A stretch of DNA of 64,000 bases from assembly GCA_016212085.1 (NCBI GenBank), contig JACRHL010000003.1, positions 321,178-385,177 on the forward strand, in the 5' to 3' direction. Under the pieces are notes generated by a model. The model was not told where the DNA came from. It worked only from the letters and a program-made list of their open reading frames with translations, and did no database searches. A program made the translations under genes and the position numbers. Below, piece after piece: positions 1 to 51,024 of the stretch. The stretch comes from Nitrospirota bacterium. GTDB taxonomy: Bacteria > Nitrospirota > JACRHL01. Each line of letters opens with the position of its first letter. Positions within the stretch are counted from its first letter, which is position 1.

Positions 1-17
1 GCCCGCTCCATTTTGGT

Positions 18-75
18 CTGACCCCGGCGGCCCCGGCGCCATCTTGAGATGGCGCGCCGGGGCCGTTTCGTTTCC
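18..75 (+). terminator. GC-rich stem-loop plus T-rich tract upstream of cobU (possible attenuator or riboswitch expression platform)
   Basis: Imperfect hairpin ccccggcgccatc / ttgag / atggcgcgccgggg followed by gtttcgtttcc. Any aptamer would lie 5' of the window. Confidence 0.25.
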
Positions 76-90
76 GGCGGGAGGGAAATC

Positions 91-627
91 ATGCGCACGT
101 TGGTGTTGGGGGGAACCCGGTCCGGCAAGAGCCTCTATGCGGAATCCCTGCTCGATGGCGCGCCACGGGTGCGCTACGTGGCCACCCTGCGGCCGGACGA
201 TGTGGAGTGCGTGCAGCGCATCCGCCGCCATCGGGAACGCCGCCCGCACGGCTGGGAGCTGGTGGAGGCCGGCCCCCACCTGGGCGCCGCCCTGGACGGC
301 CTGGCGCCCGACACGTCGGTGCTGGTGGACGGCATCACCCTGTGGCTGGCCGCCCTGCTGGACGACGGGGCCGCGGCGGCCAACCCGGAGCCGGCCGTGG
401 AAATGGCGGTGGCCCGGCTGACGGCCCTGCCCAGCGTGGTCATCGTCGCCGACGACGTGGGCGGCGGCCTGGTGCCCGAGAGCGCCCTGGCGCGCCGCTT
501 CCGCGACCTGGCCGGCGAGTTGAACCAGCGCCTGGCCGCCGCCTGCGACCGGGTGGTGCTGGTCACCGCCGGGCTGCCGCTGGTATTGAAGGGGCCGCCG
601 CCCCACACCGCCCACAAGGAGGAATGA
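91..627 (+). CDS. cobU: adenosylcobinamide kinase / adenosylcobinamide-phosphate guanylyltransferase
   Basis: P-loop LVLGGTRSGKS near N-terminus; ATG at 91 preceded by gggaggg; stop overlaps cobT start (ATGA). Confidence 0.85.
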   Translation: MRTLVLGGTRSGKSLYAESLLDGAPRVRYVATLRPDDVECVQRIRRHRERRPHGWELVEAGPHLGAALDGLAPDTSVLVDGITLWLAALLDDGAAAANPEPAVEMAVARLTALPSVVIVADDVGGGLVPESALARRFRDLAGELNQRLAAACDRVVLVTAGLPLVLKGPPPHTAHKEE

Positions 628-1700
628 CCGTGCCGCAACCGCCCGACGGGCTGCTCGCCCGCACCCTGGCCGCCATCACCCCGGTGGGGGACACGTTCAC
701 GCCCCTGGCCGCCGCCCGCCAGAACAGCCTCACCAAGCCGCCCGGCAGCCTGGGGATGCTGGAGCGGCTGGGGAGCCAGGTGTGCCGCATCCAGCGCACC
801 GTCACCCCGTCGGTGGCCAGGAAGACGGTGCTGGTGTTCGCCGCCGACCACGGCGTGGCGCGCGAGGGGGTGAGCGCCTACCCGCCGGAGGTGACGCCGC
901 AGATGGTGCTCAACTTCCTGTCCGGCGGCGCCGCCATCAACGTGCTGGCGCGCCACGCGGGTGCCCGCGTGGTGGTGGTGGACATGGGGGTGGATCACGA
1001 CTTTCCGGCGGACACCAAGGGCCTCACCATCCGCAAGGTCCGCCGCGGCACCGACACCATCACCCGTGGCCCGGCCATGAGCCGCGCCGAGGCCGTGACG
1101 GCGGTGGAGGCGGGCATCGAGGTGGCCGCCGCCGCCATCGCCGACGGGGCCGAGCTGCTCGCCACCGGCGACATGGGCATCGGCAACACCACCCCCAGCG
1201 CCGCCATCACCGCCTGCCTCACCGGCAGGGCGCCGGACCGGGTGACCGGGCGCGGCACCGGCCTGGACGACGCGGGGCTGGCGGCCAAGGTCAAGGCGGT
1301 GGAGCGCGCCTTCGCCGCCAACATCCCGGACCCCACCGATCCGCTGGGGGTGCTGGCGGCCCTGGGCGGCTTCGAGATCGGCGCCATCTGCGGCGCCATG
1401 CTGGGGGCCGCCGCCCTGCGCGTGCCGGTGGTGGTGGACGGTTTCATCTCCGGCGCCGGGGCGCTGCTGGCGGCGGCCCTGAACCCGGACGCGGCGGGCT
1501 ACATGATCGCCGGGCACCGCTCCGTGGAGCCGGGGCATCAGGTCCAGCTCGACCACCTGGGCCTGGCCCCGGTGCTGACCCTGGACATGCGCCTGGGGGA
1601 GGGCAGCGGCGCCGTGCTGGCCATGCACGTGGTGGAGGCGGCGGTGCGCGTCATCAACGAGATGGCCACGTTCGCCGAGGCCGGGGTGAGCGGGCGCTAG
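624..1700 (+). CDS. cobT: nicotinate-nucleotide--dimethylbenzimidazole phosphoribosyltransferase
   Basis: 359-aa ORF with CobT-like motifs (GDMGIGNTT, MRLGEGSGA); translationally coupled to cobU. Confidence 0.9.
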   Translation: MTVPQPPDGLLARTLAAITPVGDTFTPLAAARQNSLTKPPGSLGMLERLGSQVCRIQRTVTPSVARKTVLVFAADHGVAREGVSAYPPEVTPQMVLNFLSGGAAINVLARHAGARVVVVDMGVDHDFPADTKGLTIRKVRRGTDTITRGPAMSRAEAVTAVEAGIEVAAAAIADGAELLATGDMGIGNTTPSAAITACLTGRAPDRVTGRGTGLDDAGLAAKVKAVERAFAANIPDPTDPLGVLAALGGFEIGAICGAMLGAAALRVPVVVDGFISGAGALLAAALNPDAAGYMIAGHRSVEPGHQVQLDHLGLAPVLTLDMRLGEGSGAVLAMHVVEAAVRVINEMATFAEAGVSGR

Positions 1701-1704
1701 CGTC

Positions 1705-2472
1705 ATGGTGATCGCCTTCAGGGATCTGCTGGCGGCGGTGCTGGACGCGCTGCGTTTCCTCACCCGGTTGCCGGTTCCCACCCCCCAACCCGGAGCGGAG
1801 GGGGGGGGCGCCCCGCACCCGTGGACCATGGCCATGTTCCCCGTGGTGGGGCTGTTCCTGGGGGCAATCCTGTGGAGCGCCAGCGCCGTGTTCGAGCGGC
1901 TGCTGCCGCACGGGGTGGTGGACCTGCTGCTGCTGGGATTGCTGGCGCTGCTTTCCGGCGCCATCCACTGGGACGGCCTCATCGACACGGCGGACGCCCT
2001 GGGCGTCCCCGCCGCGCGCCGCGCGGAGGTCCTGCGCGACGTGCACGCCGGCAGTTTCGGGGTGGTGGCGCTGGCGTTCGTGCTGGGCATCCAGTGGGCG
2101 GCGCTGGCCTCCCTGTCCGGCTGGCTGCACGGGGCCGCGCTGCTGCTGTTCCCCCTGTGGGGGCGCTGGCTGATGGTGGCGGTAAGCTGGAACATGGCCG
2201 ACCTGCGCCAGGGCGGCGGACTCGCCGGGGCCTTCCTGAGCCACCTGGACCGCCGCCAGCTGGCGTGGGCCAGCGGCGGCAGCGCCGTGTTGTCGGTGCT
2301 GCTGCTGGGGCTGATCGGCGGTGTGCTGCTGTGCGCCTTGCTGGCCCTGGCCGCGTGGGGGCTGCGGATCGGCTACCGGCGCCTGTTCGGCGGCCTGTCC
2401 GGCGACCCCATCGGCGCCGCCTGCGTGCTGGGCGAGGCGGCCGCGCTGGTGGTACTGGCCGGGCTTGGCTAG
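1705..2472 (+). CDS. cobS: adenosylcobinamide-GDP ribazoletransferase (cobalamin synthase)
   Basis: 255-aa polytopic membrane protein directly after cobT; CobS-like hydrophobic profile; ends with TAG at 2470-2472. Confidence 0.85.
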   Translation: MVIAFRDLLAAVLDALRFLTRLPVPTPQPGAEGGGAPHPWTMAMFPVVGLFLGAILWSASAVFERLLPHGVVDLLLLGLLALLSGAIHWDGLIDTADALGVPAARRAEVLRDVHAGSFGVVALAFVLGIQWAALASLSGWLHGAALLLFPLWGRWLMVAVSWNMADLRQGGGLAGAFLSHLDRRQLAWASGGSAVLSVLLLGLIGGVLLCALLALAAWGLRIGYRRLFGGLSGDPIGAACVLGEAAALVVLAGLG

Positions 2473-2741
2473 GGCCTGTCAGCACAAAGGCAAGGGCGGC
2501 GACGGAACCCATTTTTTTTGCAGACCGAGGCGCGGCGCGCTGGCCGTACCGGCCGTACGGGCAAGCGCTGCAACGCAGGGTTGCGAAAAAATGGGCCGTC
2601 CCTTCGGGTTGCGCCCCGAACGGCCCCATGCCGCGTTGCACGTCGCTCATTTAGCGTAGGCTAAACCACGCTTCCGCGCGCCTTGCCTGGTGCCGTTCGG
2701 GGCGCAACGCCGCGCTTGCCATTTGTGTTGACAGGCCCTAG
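2469..2741. mobile_element. 265-bp inverted-repeat-bounded element (family C) between CTAG duplications
   Basis: Terminal inverted repeats GGCCTGTCAGCACAAAGGCAAG / CTTGCCATTTGTGTTGACAGGCC; flanked by CTAG at 2469-2472 and 2738-2741, which supply the TAG stops of convergent cobS and the deacetylase gene; internal palindromes incl. cccttcggg. Confidence 0.4.
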
Positions 2742-3691
2742 GGCCCTTGGCCGCTCAGGGCGGCCACGTGCGCGTTCACGCTGGCCGCCAGGGCATCCAG
2801 GTCGTACCCCCCCTCCAGTACCGTCACCAGGCGGCCGCCGCACAGGCGGGCGGCCAGGTCGCGCACCAGCAGCGTCATCCGCCCGAAACCGTCCGCGCTC
2901 ACGCGCATGTGCGCCAGGGGGTCGTCAAGGTGGGCGTCGAACCCGGCGGACACCAGGATGAAGTGGGGCCGGAACCGTTCCGCCGCCGGCAGCAGCACCC
3001 GTTCCAGTTCGTTCAGGTAATCCACGTCGCCACACCCCGCGGCCATGGGGCAGTTGACGGTGGTCCCCTCCCCCGCCCCGGCGCCGCGCTCGTCGGCGGC
3101 GCCGCTGCCCGGATAGAACGGATACTGGTGGATGGAGTAGTAGAGCACGCTGGGGTCGGTCCAGAAGGCCGCCTGGGTGCCGTTGCCGTGGTGCACGTCC
3201 CAGTCCACGATCAGCACCCGTTCCAGGCCGTGCCTGCGTTGCAGGTAGCGGGCGCCGATGGCCACGTTGTTGTACAGGCAGAAACCCATGGCACGGTTCG
3301 GCTCCGCGTGGTGGCCGGGCGGCCGCACCAGGCAGAAGGCGTTGTCCAGCTCCCCCGCCACCACCCGGTCGATGGCGGCCAGCACCCCGCCGGCGGCCTT
3401 CCGCGCGGCCTGCCGCGAGCCGGGCGAGACCGGCGTGTCCGGGTCCAGGTAAACGTTGCCACCCCACGCCATGCCCGCCGCCGCCTCGACCCGCGCCAGG
3501 TGCGACGGCGTGTGCACCAGCCCCAGCCAGGCCGCCTCCGCGTCGTACGGGCTGACCGGCGTCAACGCCGGCCGCAGGCCGCTGCGGTCCAGCCCGGCGA
3601 GCACGGCGCGCAGCCGGTCCGGGCACTCCGGGTGCATGGCCCCGGTGTCGTGGTTCAGGTAGGCGGGGTGGTAGACCAGTCCGGTGCGCAT
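2738..3691 (-). CDS. histone deacetylase-family protein (acetoin utilisation AcuC / acetylpolyamine amidohydrolase-like)
   Basis: 317 aa; motifs CLVRPPGHHAE, DWDVHHGNGTQ, SAGFDAH typical of the HDAC/arginase-fold deacetylase family; RBS ggaagg. Confidence 0.85.
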   Translation of the reverse strand: MRTGLVYHPAYLNHDTGAMHPECPDRLRAVLAGLDRSGLRPALTPVSPYDAEAAWLGLVHTPSHLARVEAAAGMAWGGNVYLDPDTPVSPGSRQAARKAAGGVLAAIDRVVAGELDNAFCLVRPPGHHAEPNRAMGFCLYNNVAIGARYLQRRHGLERVLIVDWDVHHGNGTQAAFWTDPSVLYYSIHQYPFYPGSGAADERGAGAGEGTTVNCPMAAGCGDVDYLNELERVLLPAAERFRPHFILVSAGFDAHLDDPLAHMRVSADGFGRMTLLVRDLAARLCGGRLVTVLEGGYDLDALAASVNAHVAALSGQGP

Positions 3692-3765
3692 GACGCCTTC
3701 CTCGTCCGGCGGCCGCCCCCGGCGCCCTTGTGTCCGGGGCGCCGAAGTGGGAGGCTGTTGCGGTG

Positions 3766-4731
3766 ATGGCGCATTCTACACCCGAGCGCGTGCTGGTCGC
3801 CGGCGCGGGCGCCCTGGGCTCCGTGTTCGGCGGCTTCCTGGCCCGGGCCGGGCTGGACGTGACCCTGCTCGGCCGCGCCCCGCTGATGGCCGCCATCGAA
3901 CGGGGCGGGCTGACCGTCACCGGCCTGTGGGGCACCCACCATGTGGACCGCTTGCGGGTGGCCACCGACGCCGCGCACCTCGCCGGCCCGTTCGACACCA
4001 TCCTGCTGTGCGTGAAGTCGTGGGACACGCTGCCCGTCATGCGCGCCCTGGCGCCGCTGTTGGCCGTGGACGGGCTGGCGGTATCGGTGCAGAACGGCCT
4101 GGGCAACGTGGAGGCGCTGGCCGCCGCCGTGGGCCCGGAACGGGCCGCCGGCGCGCGGGTGATCTTTGGCGCCGAGGTCACCGCCCCCGGCCGGGTGGCG
4201 GTGACCGTGTACGCGGCGCCGGTGCTGATCGGCACCCTGGACGGCACGGCCACGCCCGCCCAGCGCGCCCGGATCGACGGGCTGGTGGCGGCCCTGGGCC
4301 GCACCCCCATCCCCACCGAATCCACCCCGCGCCTGCTGCCGGCCCTGTGGGCCAAGGTGCTGTACAACGCGGCCCTCAACCCCCTGGGCGCGCTGCTGGG
4401 CGTGCCCTACGGCGAGCTGGCGGACAGCCCGCACACGCGGGCGGTGATGGACCGGGTGGTGGCGGAGGCGCTCCAGGTGGCGCGGGCGATACCGGTGGGC
4501 CTGCCGTGGGACACGGCGGCGGATTATTTGCAGGTGTTTTACGGCGAGCTGGTGCCGGCCACCGCCCGCCACCGGTCGTCCATGTTGCAGGACCTGGAGC
4601 GCGGCCGGCCCACGGAGGTGGACGCCATCAACGGCCAGGTGGTGGCCGCCGGCACGCGCCTGGGCATCCCCACCCCGGTGAACGCCGCCCTGGCGGACAT
4701 GATCCGCTTCCGCGCCGGAAGGCCCGGCTGA
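3766..4731 (+). CDS. panE: 2-dehydropantoate 2-reductase
   Basis: N-terminal Rossmann motif VLVAGAGALGS; ApbA/PanE-like length; ATG 3766 chosen over upstream GTG 3730. Confidence 0.8.
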   Translation: MAHSTPERVLVAGAGALGSVFGGFLARAGLDVTLLGRAPLMAAIERGGLTVTGLWGTHHVDRLRVATDAAHLAGPFDTILLCVKSWDTLPVMRALAPLLAVDGLAVSVQNGLGNVEALAAAVGPERAAGARVIFGAEVTAPGRVAVTVYAAPVLIGTLDGTATPAQRARIDGLVAALGRTPIPTESTPRLLPALWAKVLYNAALNPLGALLGVPYGELADSPHTRAVMDRVVAEALQVARAIPVGLPWDTAADYLQVFYGELVPATARHRSSMLQDLERGRPTEVDAINGQVVAAGTRLGIPTPVNAALADMIRFRAGRPG

Positions 4732-4737
4732 ACCCCG

Positions 4738-7155
4738 CTACCTGAGGTCGATGTAGTAGACCCGGCCGACACGCCGGAGCAGGAAATCCGAACCCGCCAC
4801 CAGCTCGCCGCCACCGCTCACGTACAGCCGCTTGGCGGGCAGGCCGCCCACGCTGCCCACGCCCACCGCCGCCATGGCGGTGATGCCGTCCACCGCGTTG
4901 TTGGGGAACAGGGGCAGGCGGCCCCAATCGCCAAAGCCGCCGGTGCTCGGGTTGATGCCCAGGTAATACACCTCGCGGTTGCCGCTCACCATGTCATCCC
5001 CCCCCACCACGATCAGCCGGTCGTCGCCGGGGATGTTCACCATGGCGTGGAACTCCAGCGCGCGCGGCAGCGGCGGGCCGGCCATCCAGTCGATGGCAAA
5101 GTCGCCGGTGGCGGGGTTCAGGGTGACGTACCACACCTCGTCCAGCACCTGGTCGGCGGCAAACTCGTCGGCGCCGGCGGAACCGCCGGAGATCACCAGC
5201 CGGTTGCCCACCACCGCCGCGGCGTGCTTGTTGCGCGGGCTGGGCAGGGGCAAGGGCATCTGCGACCAGCCGGTCAGGCGGCCGTCGGGCAGGATCTCGG
5301 CGCGGAAGATCTCCTCCCGGTTGCGCCCCACCTTCTGGCCGTTGCGCTCCGCCCAGCCCCAGCCGCCCAGCACGTACAGCCAGTTGCCGTAGCGCACCAT
5401 GGCGGGGCGGTAGGCGCCGGGCACGTCCACCATGGTCGCGCCACCCGACGGCGCCAGGGACACCGACGGCAGCGGCGGCCCCTCCACCCAGCCATCAACG
5501 CCACCGTTGGCGGGATCCACCCGGGCGATGAGGGTGCGTTCGGAAAAGCGCGTGAGGGTATTGCCGTTGGCCGTCGCACTGCCGCCGTTGATATCGGCCA
5601 CGCCGGTGATGCCCGTGTCGATCTGGGCGTCGATGCCGCCCACCACGTACAGGTGGGTGTCGGTGCCCACCATGGCATGGCCGTGCACCTGGTAGCGCAC
5701 GTAGTAGTCGTGCCGGTTCGGCAGTCCGGTGATGGTGGGGCGGCTGATGCACGCCACCGGAGCACCCGGCTGAAGCTGGGATACATCCGTGCAGCCGGCC
5801 TTCTCGGTGGCGCCGGGCTCGTCCGCCAGGCGCCAGATGGCCATGCAGGCGGGCCAGGTGTCGACCTGGTCGCCGGTGGTGCACGGGTTGAGCACGGTCT
5901 GGTTGACCGCATCGCTCACGTCGGAACGGTCCCAGGAGCGGAACAGCGGGTCGGAACTGAAGATATCGGGCTGATTGGTGGCCATGTGAGCGCGGGCGAC
6001 CTGCTCCTTGGGGCCGCCGTTGCCGTAGCCGCCGGTGTAGAACAGGTGGTCGCCCACGGCGGCCATGGCGTGCTGGGCGGTGGCGTCGGGCATGATCGGC
6101 TTCCCCGCCAGGTCCTTCGCCTCGTTCCACGGGCTGGACACGGTGGGGTCGTAGCGCAGCACGGTCACCAAGACCGCTGGACCGATGTATGTCTGCCCCA
6201 GGTAGGTGGCCCGGGCGGTCACGTTCAGCCTGCCCTCCGCCACGCCGGTGAGCGTGACCCGGCCGGAATCGAGGGGGTCCACATCCAGGGTGACGAGGCC
6301 GGCAGGGCTGGCCACCCACTGCACGTCGGCGGGCAGCACCTGGCCGGTTTCCAGGCTCTTCAAGCGGGCGAACAGGTCGCGCGTCTCGCCGGCGATCATG
6401 GTTGCCGAGGTGGCCGACATCTGCACCTCGGGGGGCGGCGGCGAACTGCCGTTCACCCCGCGCACGATCAGCTGCACCGCGACCCGGGAATTGGCGGTGC
6501 CGGCACCCATCGGCGCCACGGTGATGGTGGCGATGCCGGCGCTGACGCCGCTGATCAGCCCCGATTGATCCAGGATGCTCGCGATGTTGGAGTGGGAGCT
6601 GGCCCACGACAGGGGCACCTCCGGGATCACCTGGCCGGACTGGTTGTACGCGGTGGCGGTCATCTGGATGCGATAGCCCTCGGCCACGATCGGCTGCGGC
6701 GGAAACACGCTCACTGTGGCCACCGCGCGGTCCGATGTGGTGCCGCCCGTGAAGGTGACGGTCGACACGCCCGGGGCCACCGCCACGGGGGCGGAGCGCG
6801 CCTTGGCCTGGCCGGTGATGCCGGAGAGGCTTGCGCTGACGGTCACCGTGCCGACGGTGCTGGGGCTGGTGGAACGCAGACGGCCCTGGTTGTCGACGGT
6901 GGCCAGCAGGGTGTCCGACGATTGCCAACCGAAGGTGGCGCCGGAGACCGCGTCACCGCAGGCGTTGTAGGCCTGGGCGGTCATCTGGAACGGGGCGCTG
7001 CTGGGCACCACCACCGGGTCGTGCGGGTACACGCGCACCTCGGCCACGTCGGTGCTGACGGAGCACGCCTGCAACCCGTCGATGTTGCCGAAGCCGTCCC
7101 CACAGGCGGCCAGCGGCAGCAGAGTTCCCAATATCAGTAAACGGCGTAACAACAT
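4738..7155 (-). CDS. large lipoprotein with Ig-like (BIG2-type) domains and Kelch/beta-propeller repeats
   Basis: Signal peptide plus lipobox (LLPLAACG); repeated Ig-like segments; several GG-rich propeller-like repeats (VVGG, VLGGWG, VISGG). Start ATG 7155 (alternative GTG 7179). Confidence 0.7.
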   Translation of the reverse strand: MLLRRLLILGTLLPLAACGDGFGNIDGLQACSVSTDVAEVRVYPHDPVVVPSSAPFQMTAQAYNACGDAVSGATFGWQSSDTLLATVDNQGRLRSTSPSTVGTVTVSASLSGITGQAKARSAPVAVAPGVSTVTFTGGTTSDRAVATVSVFPPQPIVAEGYRIQMTATAYNQSGQVIPEVPLSWASSHSNIASILDQSGLISGVSAGIATITVAPMGAGTANSRVAVQLIVRGVNGSSPPPPEVQMSATSATMIAGETRDLFARLKSLETGQVLPADVQWVASPAGLVTLDVDPLDSGRVTLTGVAEGRLNVTARATYLGQTYIGPAVLVTVLRYDPTVSSPWNEAKDLAGKPIMPDATAQHAMAAVGDHLFYTGGYGNGGPKEQVARAHMATNQPDIFSSDPLFRSWDRSDVSDAVNQTVLNPCTTGDQVDTWPACMAIWRLADEPGATEKAGCTDVSQLQPGAPVACISRPTITGLPNRHDYYVRYQVHGHAMVGTDTHLYVVGGIDAQIDTGITGVADINGGSATANGNTLTRFSERTLIARVDPANGGVDGWVEGPPLPSVSLAPSGGATMVDVPGAYRPAMVRYGNWLYVLGGWGWAERNGQKVGRNREEIFRAEILPDGRLTGWSQMPLPLPSPRNKHAAAVVGNRLVISGGSAGADEFAADQVLDEVWYVTLNPATGDFAIDWMAGPPLPRALEFHAMVNIPGDDRLIVVGGDDMVSGNREVYYLGINPSTGGFGDWGRLPLFPNNAVDGITAMAAVGVGSVGGLPAKRLYVSGGGELVAGSDFLLRRVGRVYYIDLR

Positions 7156-17765: not shown

Positions 17766-18170
17766 ATGACCGACGGATTCTATTACGCGATACTCATATC
17801 CTGGCTGCTGTCGTTCCTGTTCTACGGCCTCGCCGGAGGGCTGATCAAGGCCCGCACGGTCGGCCGCACGCCGCACATCATGCTCACCGTGGGCGGCTTC
17901 ATGACCGACTTCGTCGCCTACTTCTTCCAGACCCAGCACCTGGTGATCCTGGCGGCCACCGTGCCCGGCTTCGCCCTGGACCCGGCGCTGCGCGGCTGGC
18001 AGACCGTGGCGACAAACCTGTCCATGGCCATGTATTGCGTGACGGCGATGTTCGGCTTCGCGCGCGTTGTCGGGTGGCACGGCGTGGGCCGCTGGCACGT
18101 GCCCGTGGCGCTGCTGTTCGTGGTCAACCTGGTGACGGCGCGGACCCTCTACTGGCGGCTGATTAACTAG
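17766..18170 (+). CDS. hypothetical small membrane protein
   Basis: 134-aa ORF with 3-4 predicted TM helices; ends with TAG inside the CTAG that flanks the downstream repeat; no recognised family. Confidence 0.4.
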   Translation: MTDGFYYAILISWLLSFLFYGLAGGLIKARTVGRTPHIMLTVGGFMTDFVAYFFQTQHLVILAATVPGFALDPALRGWQTVATNLSMAMYCVTAMFGFARVVGWHGVGRWHVPVALLFVVNLVTARTLYWRLIN

Positions 18171-18335
18171 CAGACTGTTGAAAAAGTCCTTCCATGGACT
18201 TTCTCAACTCGAAACCGGCAAAGCGCGGTTTCCCGGTTTCTCCGGATTGCAGGCGCTGACGCGCTCGCAATCCGCCGGCACATCCCTGTGCCGGACGCAG
18301 ACATGCCGAAAAACGGTGTTTTAACCGCCTGCTAG
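18167..18335. mobile_element. hairpin-rich mosaic repeat element, family A (copy 1), flanked by CTAG/CTAG
   Basis: Core 18171-18331 begins CAGACTGTTGAAAAAGTCC...GGACTTTCTCAAC (perfect hairpin), further hairpins inside; CTAG at 18167-18170 and 18332-18335 provide TAG stops to the convergent flanking genes. Confidence 0.6.
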
Positions 18336-20329: not shown

Positions 20330-21220
20330 ATGGGACCGCCTCGCCAGACACCGGGAACCGACCACGCGGCGCTTCGCGAGCACCGGGCCCACCCGCGCGC
20401 CTTTCACGAGAACCGCTACGTGTACGCCGTGCTGTCGCGGCGCTCCGGCGGCATCTCCATCGGCGTCAACCTGAACCCGGACAAGCGCTGCAACTTCGAC
20501 TGCATCTACTGCCAGGTGGACCGCCGGTGCATGCCGCCGCCGGAGCCGGTGAACCTGGAACAACTGCGCGACGAGCTGGAGGGCGTCCTGGCCGCCGCCG
20601 CCCGCGGCGACCTGTACGCCGAGGCGCGCTTCCGCGACCTGCCGCCCCCCCTGAGACAGGTGCGCGACATCGCCCTGTCCGGCGACGGCGAGCCCACCCA
20701 GTGCACCCGTTTCGAGCGGGTGGCCGAGGTGGTCACCGAACTGGCCGCCCGCCACGCCACGCCACCGCTGCCGGTGGTGCTGATCACCAACGCCACCGGC
20801 CTGAACCGGAGCCGGGTGGTGCGCGGGGTGGACCGCATCATGGCCGGCGGCGGCGCCATCTGGGCCAAGCTCGACGCGGGCACGGCGGAGCGCTACGCGC
20901 GCATCTGCGGCCACCGGGTGCCGTTCCGGAAGGTGCTGGACAACCTGGCGGCCACCGCGCGCCGCCACCCCGTCACCCTGCAAACCTGCCTGTTCAACCT
21001 GGAGGGCAGCCCCCCGCCGGACGGGGAGATCGACGCCTACGCGAAACAGCTCGCCAAAATATTGGCGAATGACGGTCAAATCCTTGGCATCCAGCTTTAC
21101 ACGGTGGCCAGAAAACCGGCGGAATCCTGCGTGACCGCCCTCGACGCGTCCACCCTGGACGCCATCGCCGCCCGCATCGGCGCGGCCCTGCCCACGGTGC
21201 CGCTGCACGTTTATCCATAG
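20330..21220 (+). CDS. radical SAM domain protein
   Basis: CNFDCIYC (CxxxCxxC) about 50 aa from start, preceded by SRRSGGISIGVNLNP; start uncertain (ATG 20330 vs TTG 20321). Confidence 0.7.
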   Translation: MGPPRQTPGTDHAALREHRAHPRAFHENRYVYAVLSRRSGGISIGVNLNPDKRCNFDCIYCQVDRRCMPPPEPVNLEQLRDELEGVLAAAARGDLYAEARFRDLPPPLRQVRDIALSGDGEPTQCTRFERVAEVVTELAARHATPPLPVVLITNATGLNRSRVVRGVDRIMAGGGAIWAKLDAGTAERYARICGHRVPFRKVLDNLAATARRHPVTLQTCLFNLEGSPPPDGEIDAYAKQLAKILANDGQILGIQLYTVARKPAESCVTALDASTLDAIAARIGAALPTVPLHVYP

Positions 21221-21385
21221 CAGGATGTTGAAAAAGTCCCTCCATGGACTTTTTCAACTCGAAAACGGCAAAGCGTGGTTTCCCGTTCTCTCCGGGTTTC
21301 AAGCGCTTGCGCGCCTGAAACCCGCCGGTACCTCCCTGTACCGGGCGCAGGCTGTTGAAAAAGTCCCTCCATGGACTTTTTCCAA
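21218..21385. mobile_element. hairpin-rich mosaic repeat element, family A (copy 2)
   Basis: Begins immediately after radical-SAM TAG stop: TAG|CAGGATGTTGAAAAAGTCCCTCCATGGACTTTTTCAAC...; same hairpin repeated at its 3' end; TAG/ATAG at both ends. Confidence 0.55.
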
Positions 21386-21507
21386 TAGACCGGCCCGTGA
21401 CCGGCGCCCGGCGGCGCCGCCGGCGCGGGGTTGGCGCAGGGTTGGCACGGGAAATGCTATTCCTAACCTTTCGGGAGGGACAAAACCGCCCCCCGGAAGG
21501 AATCGTC

Positions 21508-21658: not shown

Positions 21659-21801
21659 GGGCACCTCTAAAAACCTGCTACGCGGTTCGATTGCTGCGTT
21701 GGGCGGTGCTCGAACCCTCTCCTATCACCATGATATGTCTCGGGTTCTGTGCTCCGGCCACCTTGCACTCGAACCGCTCGCAACGGTTTTTAGAGGTGCC
21801 C
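21659..21801. mobile_element. 143-bp MITE, family B (intergenic copy upstream of dnaE)
   Basis: TIRs GGGCACCTCTAAAAACC / GGTTTTTAGAGGTGCCC; 4-bp direct duplication TGGT on both sides. Confidence 0.7.
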
Positions 21802-21952: not shown

Positions 21953-25579
<3,627 letters not shown>

Positions 25580-28451: not shown

Positions 28452-29147
28452 CTAAGGCATCGAATAAACGGTTGGGTCTTCCTGCCCTGCCTCCACAAAT
28501 CCCCTCCTCCGCAAAATGCAGCTATCGCACTGCCCGCACGCCCGGCCCTTCTCGTCCGGGTCGTAGCAGCTATGGGTCAGGCCGTAGTCCACCCCCAGGC
28601 GGATTCCCTCCCGGATGATGTCCGCCTTGGTCATGCGGATCAGGGGGGCGTGGATGGTGAAGCGGCCGCCCTCGGCGCCGGCCTTGGTGGCCAGGTTGGC
28701 CAGGTTCTCGAAGGCGCCCAGGAATTCCGGCCGGCAGTCCGGGTAGCCCGAGTAGTCGATGGCGTTGGCGCCCACGAAGATGTGGAACGCGCCCAGCACC
28801 TCGGCATAGGCCAGGGCCAGGGCCAGGAACACCGTGTTGCGCGCGGGCACGTAGGTGACCGGGATGTCGTCCCCCATGTGTTCGGCGCTGCGGCCCTTGG
28901 GCACGTCTATCGCGTCCGTCAGGGCGGAGCCGCCCAGGTCGCTCAAGTCCACCCGCACCGTCTTGTGGGCCAGGGCGCCCCCGGCCGCCGCCACCTTCCG
29001 CGCCGCCGCCAGTTCCACCCGGTGGCGCTGGCCATAGTCGAAGCTGATGGCGTAGGGGGCGTAGCCCTGGGCCTTCGCCATGGCCAGCACCGTGGCCGAA
29101 TCCAGGCCGCCGCTCACCAGCACCACCGCCTTCCGGACACCTTCCAA
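28452..29147 (-). CDS. queC: 7-cyano-7-deazaguanine synthase
   Basis: N-terminal [14 protein letters not shown]-loop, C-terminal Zn-binding CGQCDSC; proposed TTG start 29147 lies inside the adjacent MITE terminus. Confidence 0.8.
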
Positions 29148-29277
29148 AACCTGCCGCGCGCCCCGATCGCTGCGTTGGGCGGTGCCCGGCCCCTCGCCTA
29201 TCGGCTTGACATGTCTCGGGGCCTGCGCTCCGTCCGCCTTGCGCTCGGGGCGCTCGCCACGGTTTCCGATGGTGCCC
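29135..29277. mobile_element. 143-bp MITE, family B (degenerate copy at queC 5' end)
   Basis: Degenerate TIRs GGACACCTTCCAAAACC / GGTTTCCGATGGTGCCC; internal sequence matches other copies (ccgagacatgtc, gcgatcggggcgcgc). Confidence 0.6.
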
Positions 29278-34281: not shown

Positions 34282-34446
34282 GGGCACCTCTATTAACCGT
34301 CGCGCGCGCCCCCTGGTGCCAGGTGCCCCGAGCGGAGCGGCACCGTTACGCCGCGCGGAACCCGAGACATATCCGGGTGATGGGCGAGGGTTCGAGCACC
34401 GCTGGGCGCGGCAATCGGGGCGCGCGGCAGGTTGATAGAGGTGCCC
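34282..34446. mobile_element. 165-bp MITE, family B (copy with internal expansion)
   Basis: TIRs GGGCACCTCTATTAACC / GGTTGATAGAGGTGCCC; no matching target duplication; abuts transposase remnant. Confidence 0.7.
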
Positions 34447-38557: not shown

Positions 38558-38690
38558 GTTCCCATGCAGTGTGTTGCAAAAGCTCTTCCCCGGCTTGTTC
38601 AACTCGAAACCGGAAAAGCGTGGTTTTCCGGTTTCTCCGGCGCCAGAAAAGCCTCTCACACGGATTGTCACCCTGCGGATGCGGGCGGGT
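38558..38690. repeat. partial family A repeat element
   Basis: ttgttcaactcgaaaccggaaaagcgtggttttccggtttctccgg closely matches the central hairpin module of the other family A copies. Confidence 0.45.
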
Positions 38691-39436: not shown

Positions 39437-39581
39437 GGGCACCTCTATTAACCGTCGCGAGCGCCCCGAGCGCAAGGCGGACTTAAGCGGAGAACCCGAG
39501 ACATATCATGGTGATAGGAGAGGGTTCGAGCACCGCTTAGGCGCAGCAATCGGGGCGCACAGCAGGTTAATAGAGGTGCCC
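39437..39581. mobile_element. 145-bp MITE, family B
   Basis: TIRs GGGCACCTCTATTAACC / GGTTAATAGAGGTGCCC; 4-bp duplication ACAT on both sides. Confidence 0.75.
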
Positions 39582-44976: not shown

Positions 44977-45109
44977 GGGCGACTAAAAACTACTGCGCGG
45001 CTCGATTGCCGCGTTGGGCGGTGCCCGCACTCTCTCCACGAGATGTCTCGGGTCATGCGCTCCGTCCGCCTTGTGCCCGAACCATTCGCGTCGGTTGTTG
45101 GCGGTACCC
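44977..45109. mobile_element. 133-bp MITE, family B (degenerate copy)
   Basis: Degenerate termini GGGCGACTAAAAAC / GGTTGTTGGCGGTACCC; internal match to family core. Confidence 0.55.
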
Positions 45110-48322: not shown

Positions 48323-48465
48323 GGGCACCTCTATTAACCGTCGCGAGCGCTCCGATTGCAAGGCGGACGGAGCGGAGAACCCGAGACATATCTGGGTGAT
48401 AGGCGAGGGTTCGAGCACCGCCCAACGCAGCAATCGGAGCGCGCAGTAGGTTAATAGAGGTGCCC
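48323..48465. mobile_element. 143-bp MITE, family B (inside mer operon, between merP and merB)
   Basis: TIRs GGGCACCTCTATTAACC / GGTTAATAGAGGTGCCC; 4-bp duplication CTCA on both sides. Confidence 0.75.
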
Positions 48466-49989: not shown

Positions 49990-50155
49990 CAGGTTGTTGA
50001 AAAACGGCGTTTTTCGGCATGACTGCGTCCGGTACCGGGAGGTACCGGCGGATTTCACGCGGGCAAGCGCCTGGAATCCGGAGAAACCGGGAAACCGCGC
50101 TGTTCCGGCTTCAAGTTGAAAAAGGCCACGGATGGACTTCTTCAACATCCCGCCG
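49986..50155. mobile_element. hairpin-rich mosaic repeat element, family A (copy 4, opposite orientation)
   Basis: Starts at merR stop: CTAG|CAGGTTGTTGAAAAACGG...; ~80% identical to the reverse complement of copy 1. Confidence 0.55.
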
Positions 50156-50160
50156 GACCA

Positions 50161-51024
50161 TCAGCCGGGCGAATCCGCCTTAAGCCACGCGGCCAGGTCG
50201 GCGAACACCGCCCGGCGCTCCGTTTCCAGCAACACCTCGTGGAACATCTCCGGGTATTCCCGGTAGGTGGCCGCCGGGCAGCGGGCGCACCACGCCCGCG
50301 CCGCCGCCGGCGCCACCACCCGGTCGGCGCCCGCCTGCAAACACAACAGCGGCAGGTCCACGTCGGCGGCGTGGGCGTTCACGAACGCCATCTCGCGGCA
50401 CACCTCCGTGAACCAGCGCACGTTCACCCACTTGAAGATGAGCGGGTCGGCACGGCGCCGCGCCTCCTGCTCCGGGTCGTGGCTGTTGGCGTAATCGCCG
50501 CCCCCGGCGGGTAGCGACAGCCACGGCAACGCGCCGCTGACCAGCTCCCCCAGGCGCCGCCGCAGGGGCGGCACCGGCAGGCGGATCGCAAGCAGCGGCG
50601 AGGTGACGGCCACCCGCTCCACCCCCCAGCGCGCCAGCGCCGCGGGGCGCCGGATCAGGGACGACAGCGCCACCAGGCCGCCGGTGCTGTGGCCGAGCAG
50701 GGCCCAGCGCGCCACCCCGGAGCGTTCGCGGGCGGTGGCCAGGGCCTGGTGCAGGTCGTCCAGATACTCCTCGAAACGCCCGAGGCGGCCACGCAGGCCG
50801 CTGGAGCGGCCATGGCCACGCGGGTCCATGGCCCACACGGCCAGGCCCCGGCCCGCGAAGAACGCGAACAGCTCGCCGTAGCGCTCCAGGTGGTCGGTAT
50901 AGCCGGGCAGCAGGAACAGGCCGCGGCCGGCGCCGTCCGGGGTGATGCCGGCCAGGTGCAGGCGGGCGCCCGGAACGGGCAGGGTCAGGTGCTGGGTGCC
51001 CTCGGGAAGGGGGCGGGGGGTCAC
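50161..51024 (-). CDS. alpha/beta-hydrolase (lysophospholipase/monoacylglycerol lipase-like)
   Basis: Nucleophile elbow GHSTGG, HGRSSG oxyanion region; GTG start 51024 overlaps upstream stop (GTGA). Confidence 0.75.
   Translation of the reverse strand: MTPRPLPEGTQHLTLPVPGARLHLAGITPDGAGRGLFLLPGYTDHLERYGELFAFFAGRGLAVWAMDPRGHGRSSGLRGRLGRFEEYLDDLHQALATARERSGVARWALLGHSTGGLVALSSLIRRPAALARWGVERVAVTSPLLAIRLPVPPLRRRLGELVSGALPWLSLPAGGGDYANSHDPEQEARRRADPLIFKWVNVRWFTEVCREMAFVNAHAADVDLPLLCLQAGADRVVAPAAARAWCARCPAATYREYPEMFHEVLLETERRAVFADLAAWLKADSPG

Follow-up and report, generated by a model that had tools for sequence, protein, structure and literature searches.

Positions 2469-2741 of the window (the whole stretch of 64,000 nucleotides analysed here) hold an inverted-repeat block of 273 bases, which is very probably a non-autonomous, non-coding MITE of 267 nt carrying terminal inverted repeats of the IS5 family (IS427-like). 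It is a new and unnamed element of a well-known kind, the IS5-family-derived MITE, in other words ordinary mobile DNA that has made a clean insertion. Indeed, it is shorter than about 500 bp and devoid of transposase, it carries terminal repeats, its ends are shared with an insertion sequence (IS), its target duplication is of the parental type, and a clean empty site exists. A MITE had already been suggested in the first-pass annotation, and it is the empty site, the IS5-type ends, the type of duplication and the lack of coding capacity that now support this idea.

The element, its target and its empty site

The block is bounded by a CTAG on each side (2469-2472 and 2738-2741). Its two extremities, CTAGGGCCTGTCAGCACAAA at 2469-2488 and TTTGTGTTGACAGGCCCTAG at 2722-2741, are complementary at 19 of 20 positions, and this terminal inverted repeat, as read off the sequence, reaches about 33 nt if one indel is allowed. 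When up to one mismatch is tolerated, the longest inverted repeat measures 21 nt; in 100 shuffles of the region 2300-2900 the same measure averaged 11.9 nt, with 17 nt as the highest value. The left CTAG holds the stop codon of cobS (TAG, 2470-2472) and the right one that of a gene of the histone-deacetylase family (complement of 2738-2740); the two products correspond to PF02654 (CobS) and PF00850 (Hist_deacetyl). In the list of features that follows, L069 is the contig bearing the empty site, and the other L numbers designate loci recovered in our searches.

1705-2472, + strand: cobS (adenosylcobinamide-GDP ribazoletransferase); ORF translation, PF02654 on homologues and exact protein
2470-2471, no strand: left TA duplicate; single ggCTAGgt at the L069 empty site, TA on both sides of 38/38 complete IS copies
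2472-2738, no strand: MITE proper, 267 nt, GGGCC...GGCCC; absent from L069 (alignment)
2472-2500, + strand: left terminal inverted repeat GGGCCTGTCAGCACAAA and linker GGCAAGGGCGGC; 15/17 match to the IS end GGGCCTGTTAACACAAA
2501-2600, - strand: hairpin module, copy 1, core reversed; nhmmer E = 2.9e-14, covariance model R1 59.1 bits, fold
2600-2608, + strand: junction mini-hairpin CCCTTCGGG, C-UUCG-G type; sequence and fold, similar CTTCGG junction in L141 and L087
2608-2708, + strand: hairpin module, copy 2, core forward, GCGTTGC...CGTCGCTCATTTAGC-GTAG-GCTAAAC...CGCGCCTTGCCTGG; nhmmer E = 4.7e-18, R1 89.7 bits, -58 kcal/mol when folded alone
2709-2738, - strand: right terminal inverted repeat, read on the - strand GGGCCTGTCAACACAAATGGCAAGCGCGGC; 17-nt identity to the IS5-type end of L140, 16/17 to the Polaromonas IS end
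2739-2740, no strand: right TA duplicate; L069 empty site, TA flanks of IS copies
2738-3691, - strand: histone-deacetylase-family gene; ORF, PF00850

The features pointed out in the first-pass annotation are thus all confirmed: the inverted repeats (19/20 bases), the flanking CTAGs with the cobS and deacetylase stops (ORF coordinates, PF02654 and PF00850), the stable hairpins, whose fold is far more stable than that of shuffled sequence on both strands, and the cccttcggg tetraloop, which occupies 2600-2608, where the two arms meet.

The target of the insertion is the CTAG made by the overlapping TAG stops of the convergent cobS and deacetylase genes, which share its central TA. The first G of the element together with the left TA rebuilds the cobS TAG, and its last C together with the right TA rebuilds the deacetylase stop; with G as the first and C as the last base of the element, TA+G and C+TA recreate a CTAG at either junction. 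Neither protein loses its stop or changes in length, and coding is unaffected by the insertion.

The empty site was found with the closest CobS homologue (P0001, 95% identical), which sits on L069, a 2,661-nt Logan contig. Positions 1-2205 of this contig align to window 272-2476 with 97.7% identity, and positions 2198-2661 align to window 2738-3201 with 99.1% identity. There, cobS and the deacetylase gene overlap by 4 bp in a single CTAG, with nothing between them (ggattggCTAGgtccc, in the context ...ggattggCTAGgtcccttgg...), and the pre-insertion site ...GGC-TA-GGG... is this very CTAG. Relative to L069, the window has 269 extra bases exactly at the overlap, namely the 267-nt element and the duplicated TA. 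The element is an insertion relative to this strain, which is about 98% identical, and filled and empty sites differing by exactly the element and a TA make this a clean case. The alternative, that the element was precisely excised from L069 instead of being inserted here, may also account for the difference and would equally show mobility. The C-termini of both proteins have the same length as in L069 and vary by flanking SNPs only (...AGLG vs ...AGIG and ...GQGP vs ...GQGT). In the comparison with the cobS 3' region of relatives, proposed at first pass, the element is not conserved with cobS and is absent from L069, which goes against one half of the refuting condition given there. CobS relatives at 56-59% identity are labelled Leptospirillia or Nitrospirota MAGs, so that the source organism, which is uncultured, can be placed only loosely in taxonomy.

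The filled allele is also found elsewhere. Both junctions are 100% identical in four independent Logan contigs from three samples, of which L196-L198 carry the left end and L199 the right end. We conclude that the filled allele is real because these contigs, from three further samples, carry the left and right ends at 100% identity. An assembly artefact was accordingly rejected, as the junctions recur at 100% in three samples and the same architecture is seen in homologous elements elsewhere. The four short-read contigs (window 1-2571 and 2714-6691) all break off within the element (at 2562 or 2571 on the left, at 2714 on the right) and leave 2572-2713 uncovered; these breaks may reflect a repeat, or a poor coverage of the very stable G+C-rich hairpin.

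The duplicated sequence is TA. In the related IS described below, TA flanks both sides of all 38 complete copies, in a C-TA-G context for 29 of 37; six copies lie in a C-TA-A or T-TA-G context (e.g. L084, L091). Such mixed contexts cannot arise from a duplication of 4 bp; the outer G and C are thus part of the element. The CTAG duplication proposed in the first-pass annotation was rejected on these grounds: what is duplicated is the TA inside a preferred CTAG target. We also rejected as a duplication the 8-bp direct repeat CTAGGGCC (2469-2476 and 2738-2745), which would destroy the terminal symmetry of the element and is further contradicted by L069, which has CTAGGTCC, and by the related elements, which all begin with GGGCC after the TA.

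CTAG occurs 19 times in the 64-kb window, where 62 occurrences are expected from dinucleotide frequencies (Markov) and 177 from base composition, and five of these 19 flank MITE ends. The G+C content of the window is 70%, and TA itself stands at about half of its expectation (769 vs 1443). The great rarity of CTAG at 70% G+C would leave TAG stop codons among the few preferred targets, which would explain the location of the element. In a genome so rich in G+C, an element targeting TA/CTAG would in this way be funnelled onto TAG stops, and it can insert between two overlapping convergent genes with both proteins left unchanged.

Two other repeat families are present in the window. Family A, with ends GGGCACCTCTATTAACC, comprises seven foldback repeats of about 145 nt each; the repeats of Family B measure about 155-165 nt, have GCAG(A/G)NTGTTGAAAAAG as ends and are flanked by CTA-...-TAG.

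Family A copies: 21659-21801, 24463-24605, 29135-29277, 34282-34446, 39437-39581, 44978-45109, 48323-48465
Family B copies: 18168-18322, 21218-21350, 21347-21389, 38573-38640, 50001-50167

Three Family A copies show direct repeats of 4 bp that differ in sequence (TGGT, ACAT, CTCA), and we therefore consider Family A as a second MITE family, with a different type of transposase. Its link to the hairpin module stays unproven: one copy gave a weak 26 bits with the covariance model, and the Family A nhmmer profile misses the modules. Family B looks like another MITE-like family duplicating TA and targeting CTAG.

Terminal repeats shared with an IS5-family insertion sequence

The origin of the ends was sought in plasmids at low stringency, using 34 nt of the right end as query and accepting E values up to 10. 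This query landed on the exact termini of 826-bp elements of Polaromonas sp. JS666 and Variovorax sp. SRS16 plasmids, annotated as 'IS5 family transposase', whose ends are TA followed by GGGCCTGTTAACACAAATG and TA followed by GGGCGTGTTAACACTAATTG. The match (E = 0.9) is weak alone, and the argument stands because of its exact terminal position and of the metagenome scan reported below. The plasmid IS protein is read across an A8 slippery run from two frameshifted ORFs, and it matches Pfam DUF4096 and DDE_Tnp_1 as well as NCBIfam transpos_IS5_3 (238 bits). The whole element, for its part, had no match in plasmids (blastn, 'distant' mode), and a literature search for the end sequence returned only unrelated primer matches.

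Scanning metagenomes with TAGGGCCTGTYARCACAAA gave 120 loci, of which about 80 have an IS5-type transposase directly inside the repeat, with many complete copies. The matching IS is widespread and measures 811-833 bp. The ends of the window element agree with the IS ends at 15-17 of 17 positions and show one or two differences in 17 from the commonest IS end; the C-variant of the right end, GGGCCTGTCAACACAAA, adjoins a more distant, decayed IS5-type transposase in L140. In the IS5/IS427 group, elements of 832-865 bp are bordered by a 2-bp direct repeat and contain frameshifted ORFs (PMC3281130). Judged from its size, its 2-bp repeat and its frameshift, the matching IS looks like a member of this group.

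The collection of genomes was scanned with the 17-nt end GGGCCTGTCARCACAAA. Most of the 68 loci obtained were single and chance-like, and no transposase was found beside these single ends. Paired, TA-flanked ends were present in L001, a 265-nt element of a Chromatiales MAG, 73% identical over 159 nt, and in L053 (Woeseiaceae), L018, L060 and L068 (Desulfovibrio MAGs) and L034 (Tepidicella). The small element of L034 is an internal deletion of the IS that has kept the coding sequence for the 32 C-terminal residues of the transposase. Taken over all searches, the same ends and TA flanks occur in deletion derivatives or MITEs at L001, L018, L034, L053, L087, L141, L145 and L129. Another set of loci (L018, L022, L035, L040, L060, L066, L068 and L085, from Desulfovibrio MAGs and one metagenome contig) forms a separate MITE lineage with the same end (GGGCCTGTCAACACAAATTTTAC...) and an unrelated interior, and several right ends of this lineage are preceded by CA, not TA.

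A transposase of this IS type, encoded in another part of the genome and acting in trans, would bind both ends of the element, excise or copy it, and integrate it at a TA with a duplication of this dinucleotide, CTAG being the preferred context. The element has no coding capacity of its own, and tblastn with the IS5-type transposase gave no match within its 267 nt. The same tblastn search found no such transposase anywhere in the 64-kb window, where we found no second copy of the element either; the single copy and the missing matching transposase in the window count against the MITE reading.

A perfect TTGACA, facing outward, is present in the right terminal repeat (2728-2733). No matching -10 follows it at the present site; elsewhere, ends carrying such a TTGACA can build hybrid promoters at insertion sites.

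The fold, the interior module and the rival readings

Each half of the element consists of a terminal repeat joined through a short linker to a single hairpin module of about 100 nt, and the two halves are placed head to head. The predicted fold is a Y, with an outer stem and two hairpins of about 100 nt each; for the 273 nt, its free energy is -176.3 kcal/mol on the + strand (z = -11.2) and -174.1 kcal/mol on the - strand (z = -10.4). Runs of T and A sit within the stems. The head-to-head pair of modules and the small CTTCGG hairpin would account for this very stable Y fold on either strand, and an effect on the host, as a barrier between the convergent transcripts or as a stabiliser of 3' ends, is possible.

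Within the window, the module is present in two copies only, both inside this element. It recurs in related MITEs, twice in each of L001, L053 and L087, once in each of L141, L145 and L129, and also in L014 and L020/L110. Moreover, it exists without terminal repeats in L070 (two modules), at 2364-2463 of L053, in L172 and in L176; it is carried in IS5-type MITEs and is also found solo just after stop codons. Its conservation extends from the Nitrospirota-like genome, with 70% G+C, to MAGs of Chromatiales and Woeseiaceae. In L070, whose CobS is 60% identical, the two modules are in tandem at 5781-5975, directly after the cobS stop and with no terminal repeats, so that the module has reached the end of cobS independently there; in another relative, L072, cobS is followed by just a 62-nt spacer.

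An alignment of ten modules shows a conserved core, TGC-N-GCGTTG ... CGCTCC-N-CGCCTTGC, around an apical TTTRG/CYAAA hairpin. In the consensus hairpin, changes on both sides that preserve pairing are seen for 21 of the 26 pairs, and G.U and A.C mismatches are about equal, so that neither strand is favoured. Conservation of this degree exceeds the needs of a selfish MITE, and for that reason the conserved and compensating hairpins of the interior were counted against the MITE reading; they are the only part that this reading does not explain. One proposal, which we regard as unlikely, is that the module is a functionally constrained and widespread REP-like structured repeat, acting as a cruciform or hairpin bound by a protein or acting in both transcripts, for which the MITE would be one vehicle. 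The presence of a common module in related MITEs of distant phyla is a wider point that merits a genome-wide census.

Another reading would make the ~100-nt module the active unit itself, a REP/REPIN-like sequence spread by another enzyme (e.g. a RAYT-type tyrosine transposase) or kept by selection, with the IS-type ends as a mere vehicle. The modules without terminal repeat (the tandem after cobS in L070, L053 2364-2463, L172 and L176) speak in its favour, as do the stems that stay paired through double changes and the inner stem of the module (ATGCGGCGT...CGCCTT), which may resemble the E. coli REP consensus. However, the borders of the insertion studied here coincide exactly with the terminal repeats and the TA duplicates and do not follow those of the modules, and the only two modules of the window are both inside the element. 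A tblastn search for a RAYT-like gene in the window and the loci gave no match, a weak negative as the query sequence was approximate. On balance this reading appears very unlikely.

We consider it highly improbable that the block is a structured small RNA gene, or a cis-acting RNA of the cobS or deacetylase mRNA, in which the inverted repeats would be RNA helices. The very stable fold (z of about -11), the UUCG-type junction loop and the compensatory changes in 21 of 26 module pairs would suit such an RNA. But the two strands fold equally well with balanced G.U and A.C mismatches, the extremities and their flanking TAs are of transposon type, and a strain that is about 98% identical, with both genes intact, lacks the element. 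Furthermore, the Rfam scan suggested at first pass (Rfam 15, whole window) matched no RNA family at gathering score, and gave only chance-level microRNA matches at E up to 10, and no promoter-like or terminator-like site was found on either strand of 2300-2900; an intrinsic (bidirectional) terminator, with a G+C-rich hairpin followed by a T run, was likewise not found there on either strand. The small RNA named as the alternative in the first-pass annotation is therefore unsupported by the Rfam and promoter/terminator results, the strand symmetry and the absence from L069, and blocks of this kind are best masked in annotation as mobile DNA and not recorded as small RNA genes or terminators. 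As to the type of MITE, the IS630 family likewise duplicates TA and prefers CTAG, and the TA duplication within CTAG would fit a MITE of IS630/Tc1-mariner type. This is nevertheless extremely improbable, as the ends coincide with those of IS5-family elements (DUF4096 and DDE_Tnp_1, NCBIfam transpos_IS5_3) and no IS630-type transposase lies beside any of the approximately 190 ends, all adjoining transposases being of the IS5 family.

Comparison with known small elements

The IS5-derived MITE described here can be set beside several known systems. The Correia elements of Neisseria are small, often intergenic sequences with terminal repeats and a TA duplication; they form long hairpins in transcripts, and promoter, IHF-site and RNase III effects are documented for them. 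These elements are not known to have an IS parent. The window element is like them in size, terminal repeats and TA duplication, but unrelated to them in sequence and host. REP, BIME and REPIN sequences are intergenic hairpins, often located just past stop codons, whose stems are kept by compensatory change. REP/REPIN units are short palindromes associated with a RAYT transposase and are devoid of transposon-type terminal repeats and of target duplication, whereas the window element has both.

With the insertion sequences of the IS427 group (such as IS1248, ISPpa2 and ISPpa6; PMC3281130) and the 826-bp plasmid IS, the element shares the end TA followed by GGGCCTGT(C/T)A(A/G)CACAAA and the 2-bp duplication. 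The length and the frameshifted-ORF layout of the group (PMC3281130) fit the matching IS, not the window element, which differs from the 826-bp IS by having no transposase, a length of 267 nt instead of about 826 bp, and an unrelated interior. MITEPsy1 of Pseudomonas syringae is an IS5-family-derived MITE of 100 nt whose transposition was shown by experiment (PMC3189936); for the window element, we infer mobility from the empty site. MITEPsy1 differs in that it duplicates 4 nt, ends in GGAAGGTCTGAAAAAGCC, is only 100 nt long and has no paired hairpin modules (PMC3189936). Like the window element, MITEPsy1 is a non-autonomous derivative of the IS5 family with ends copied from an IS and a preference for CTAG (or YTAA) targets (PMC3189936).
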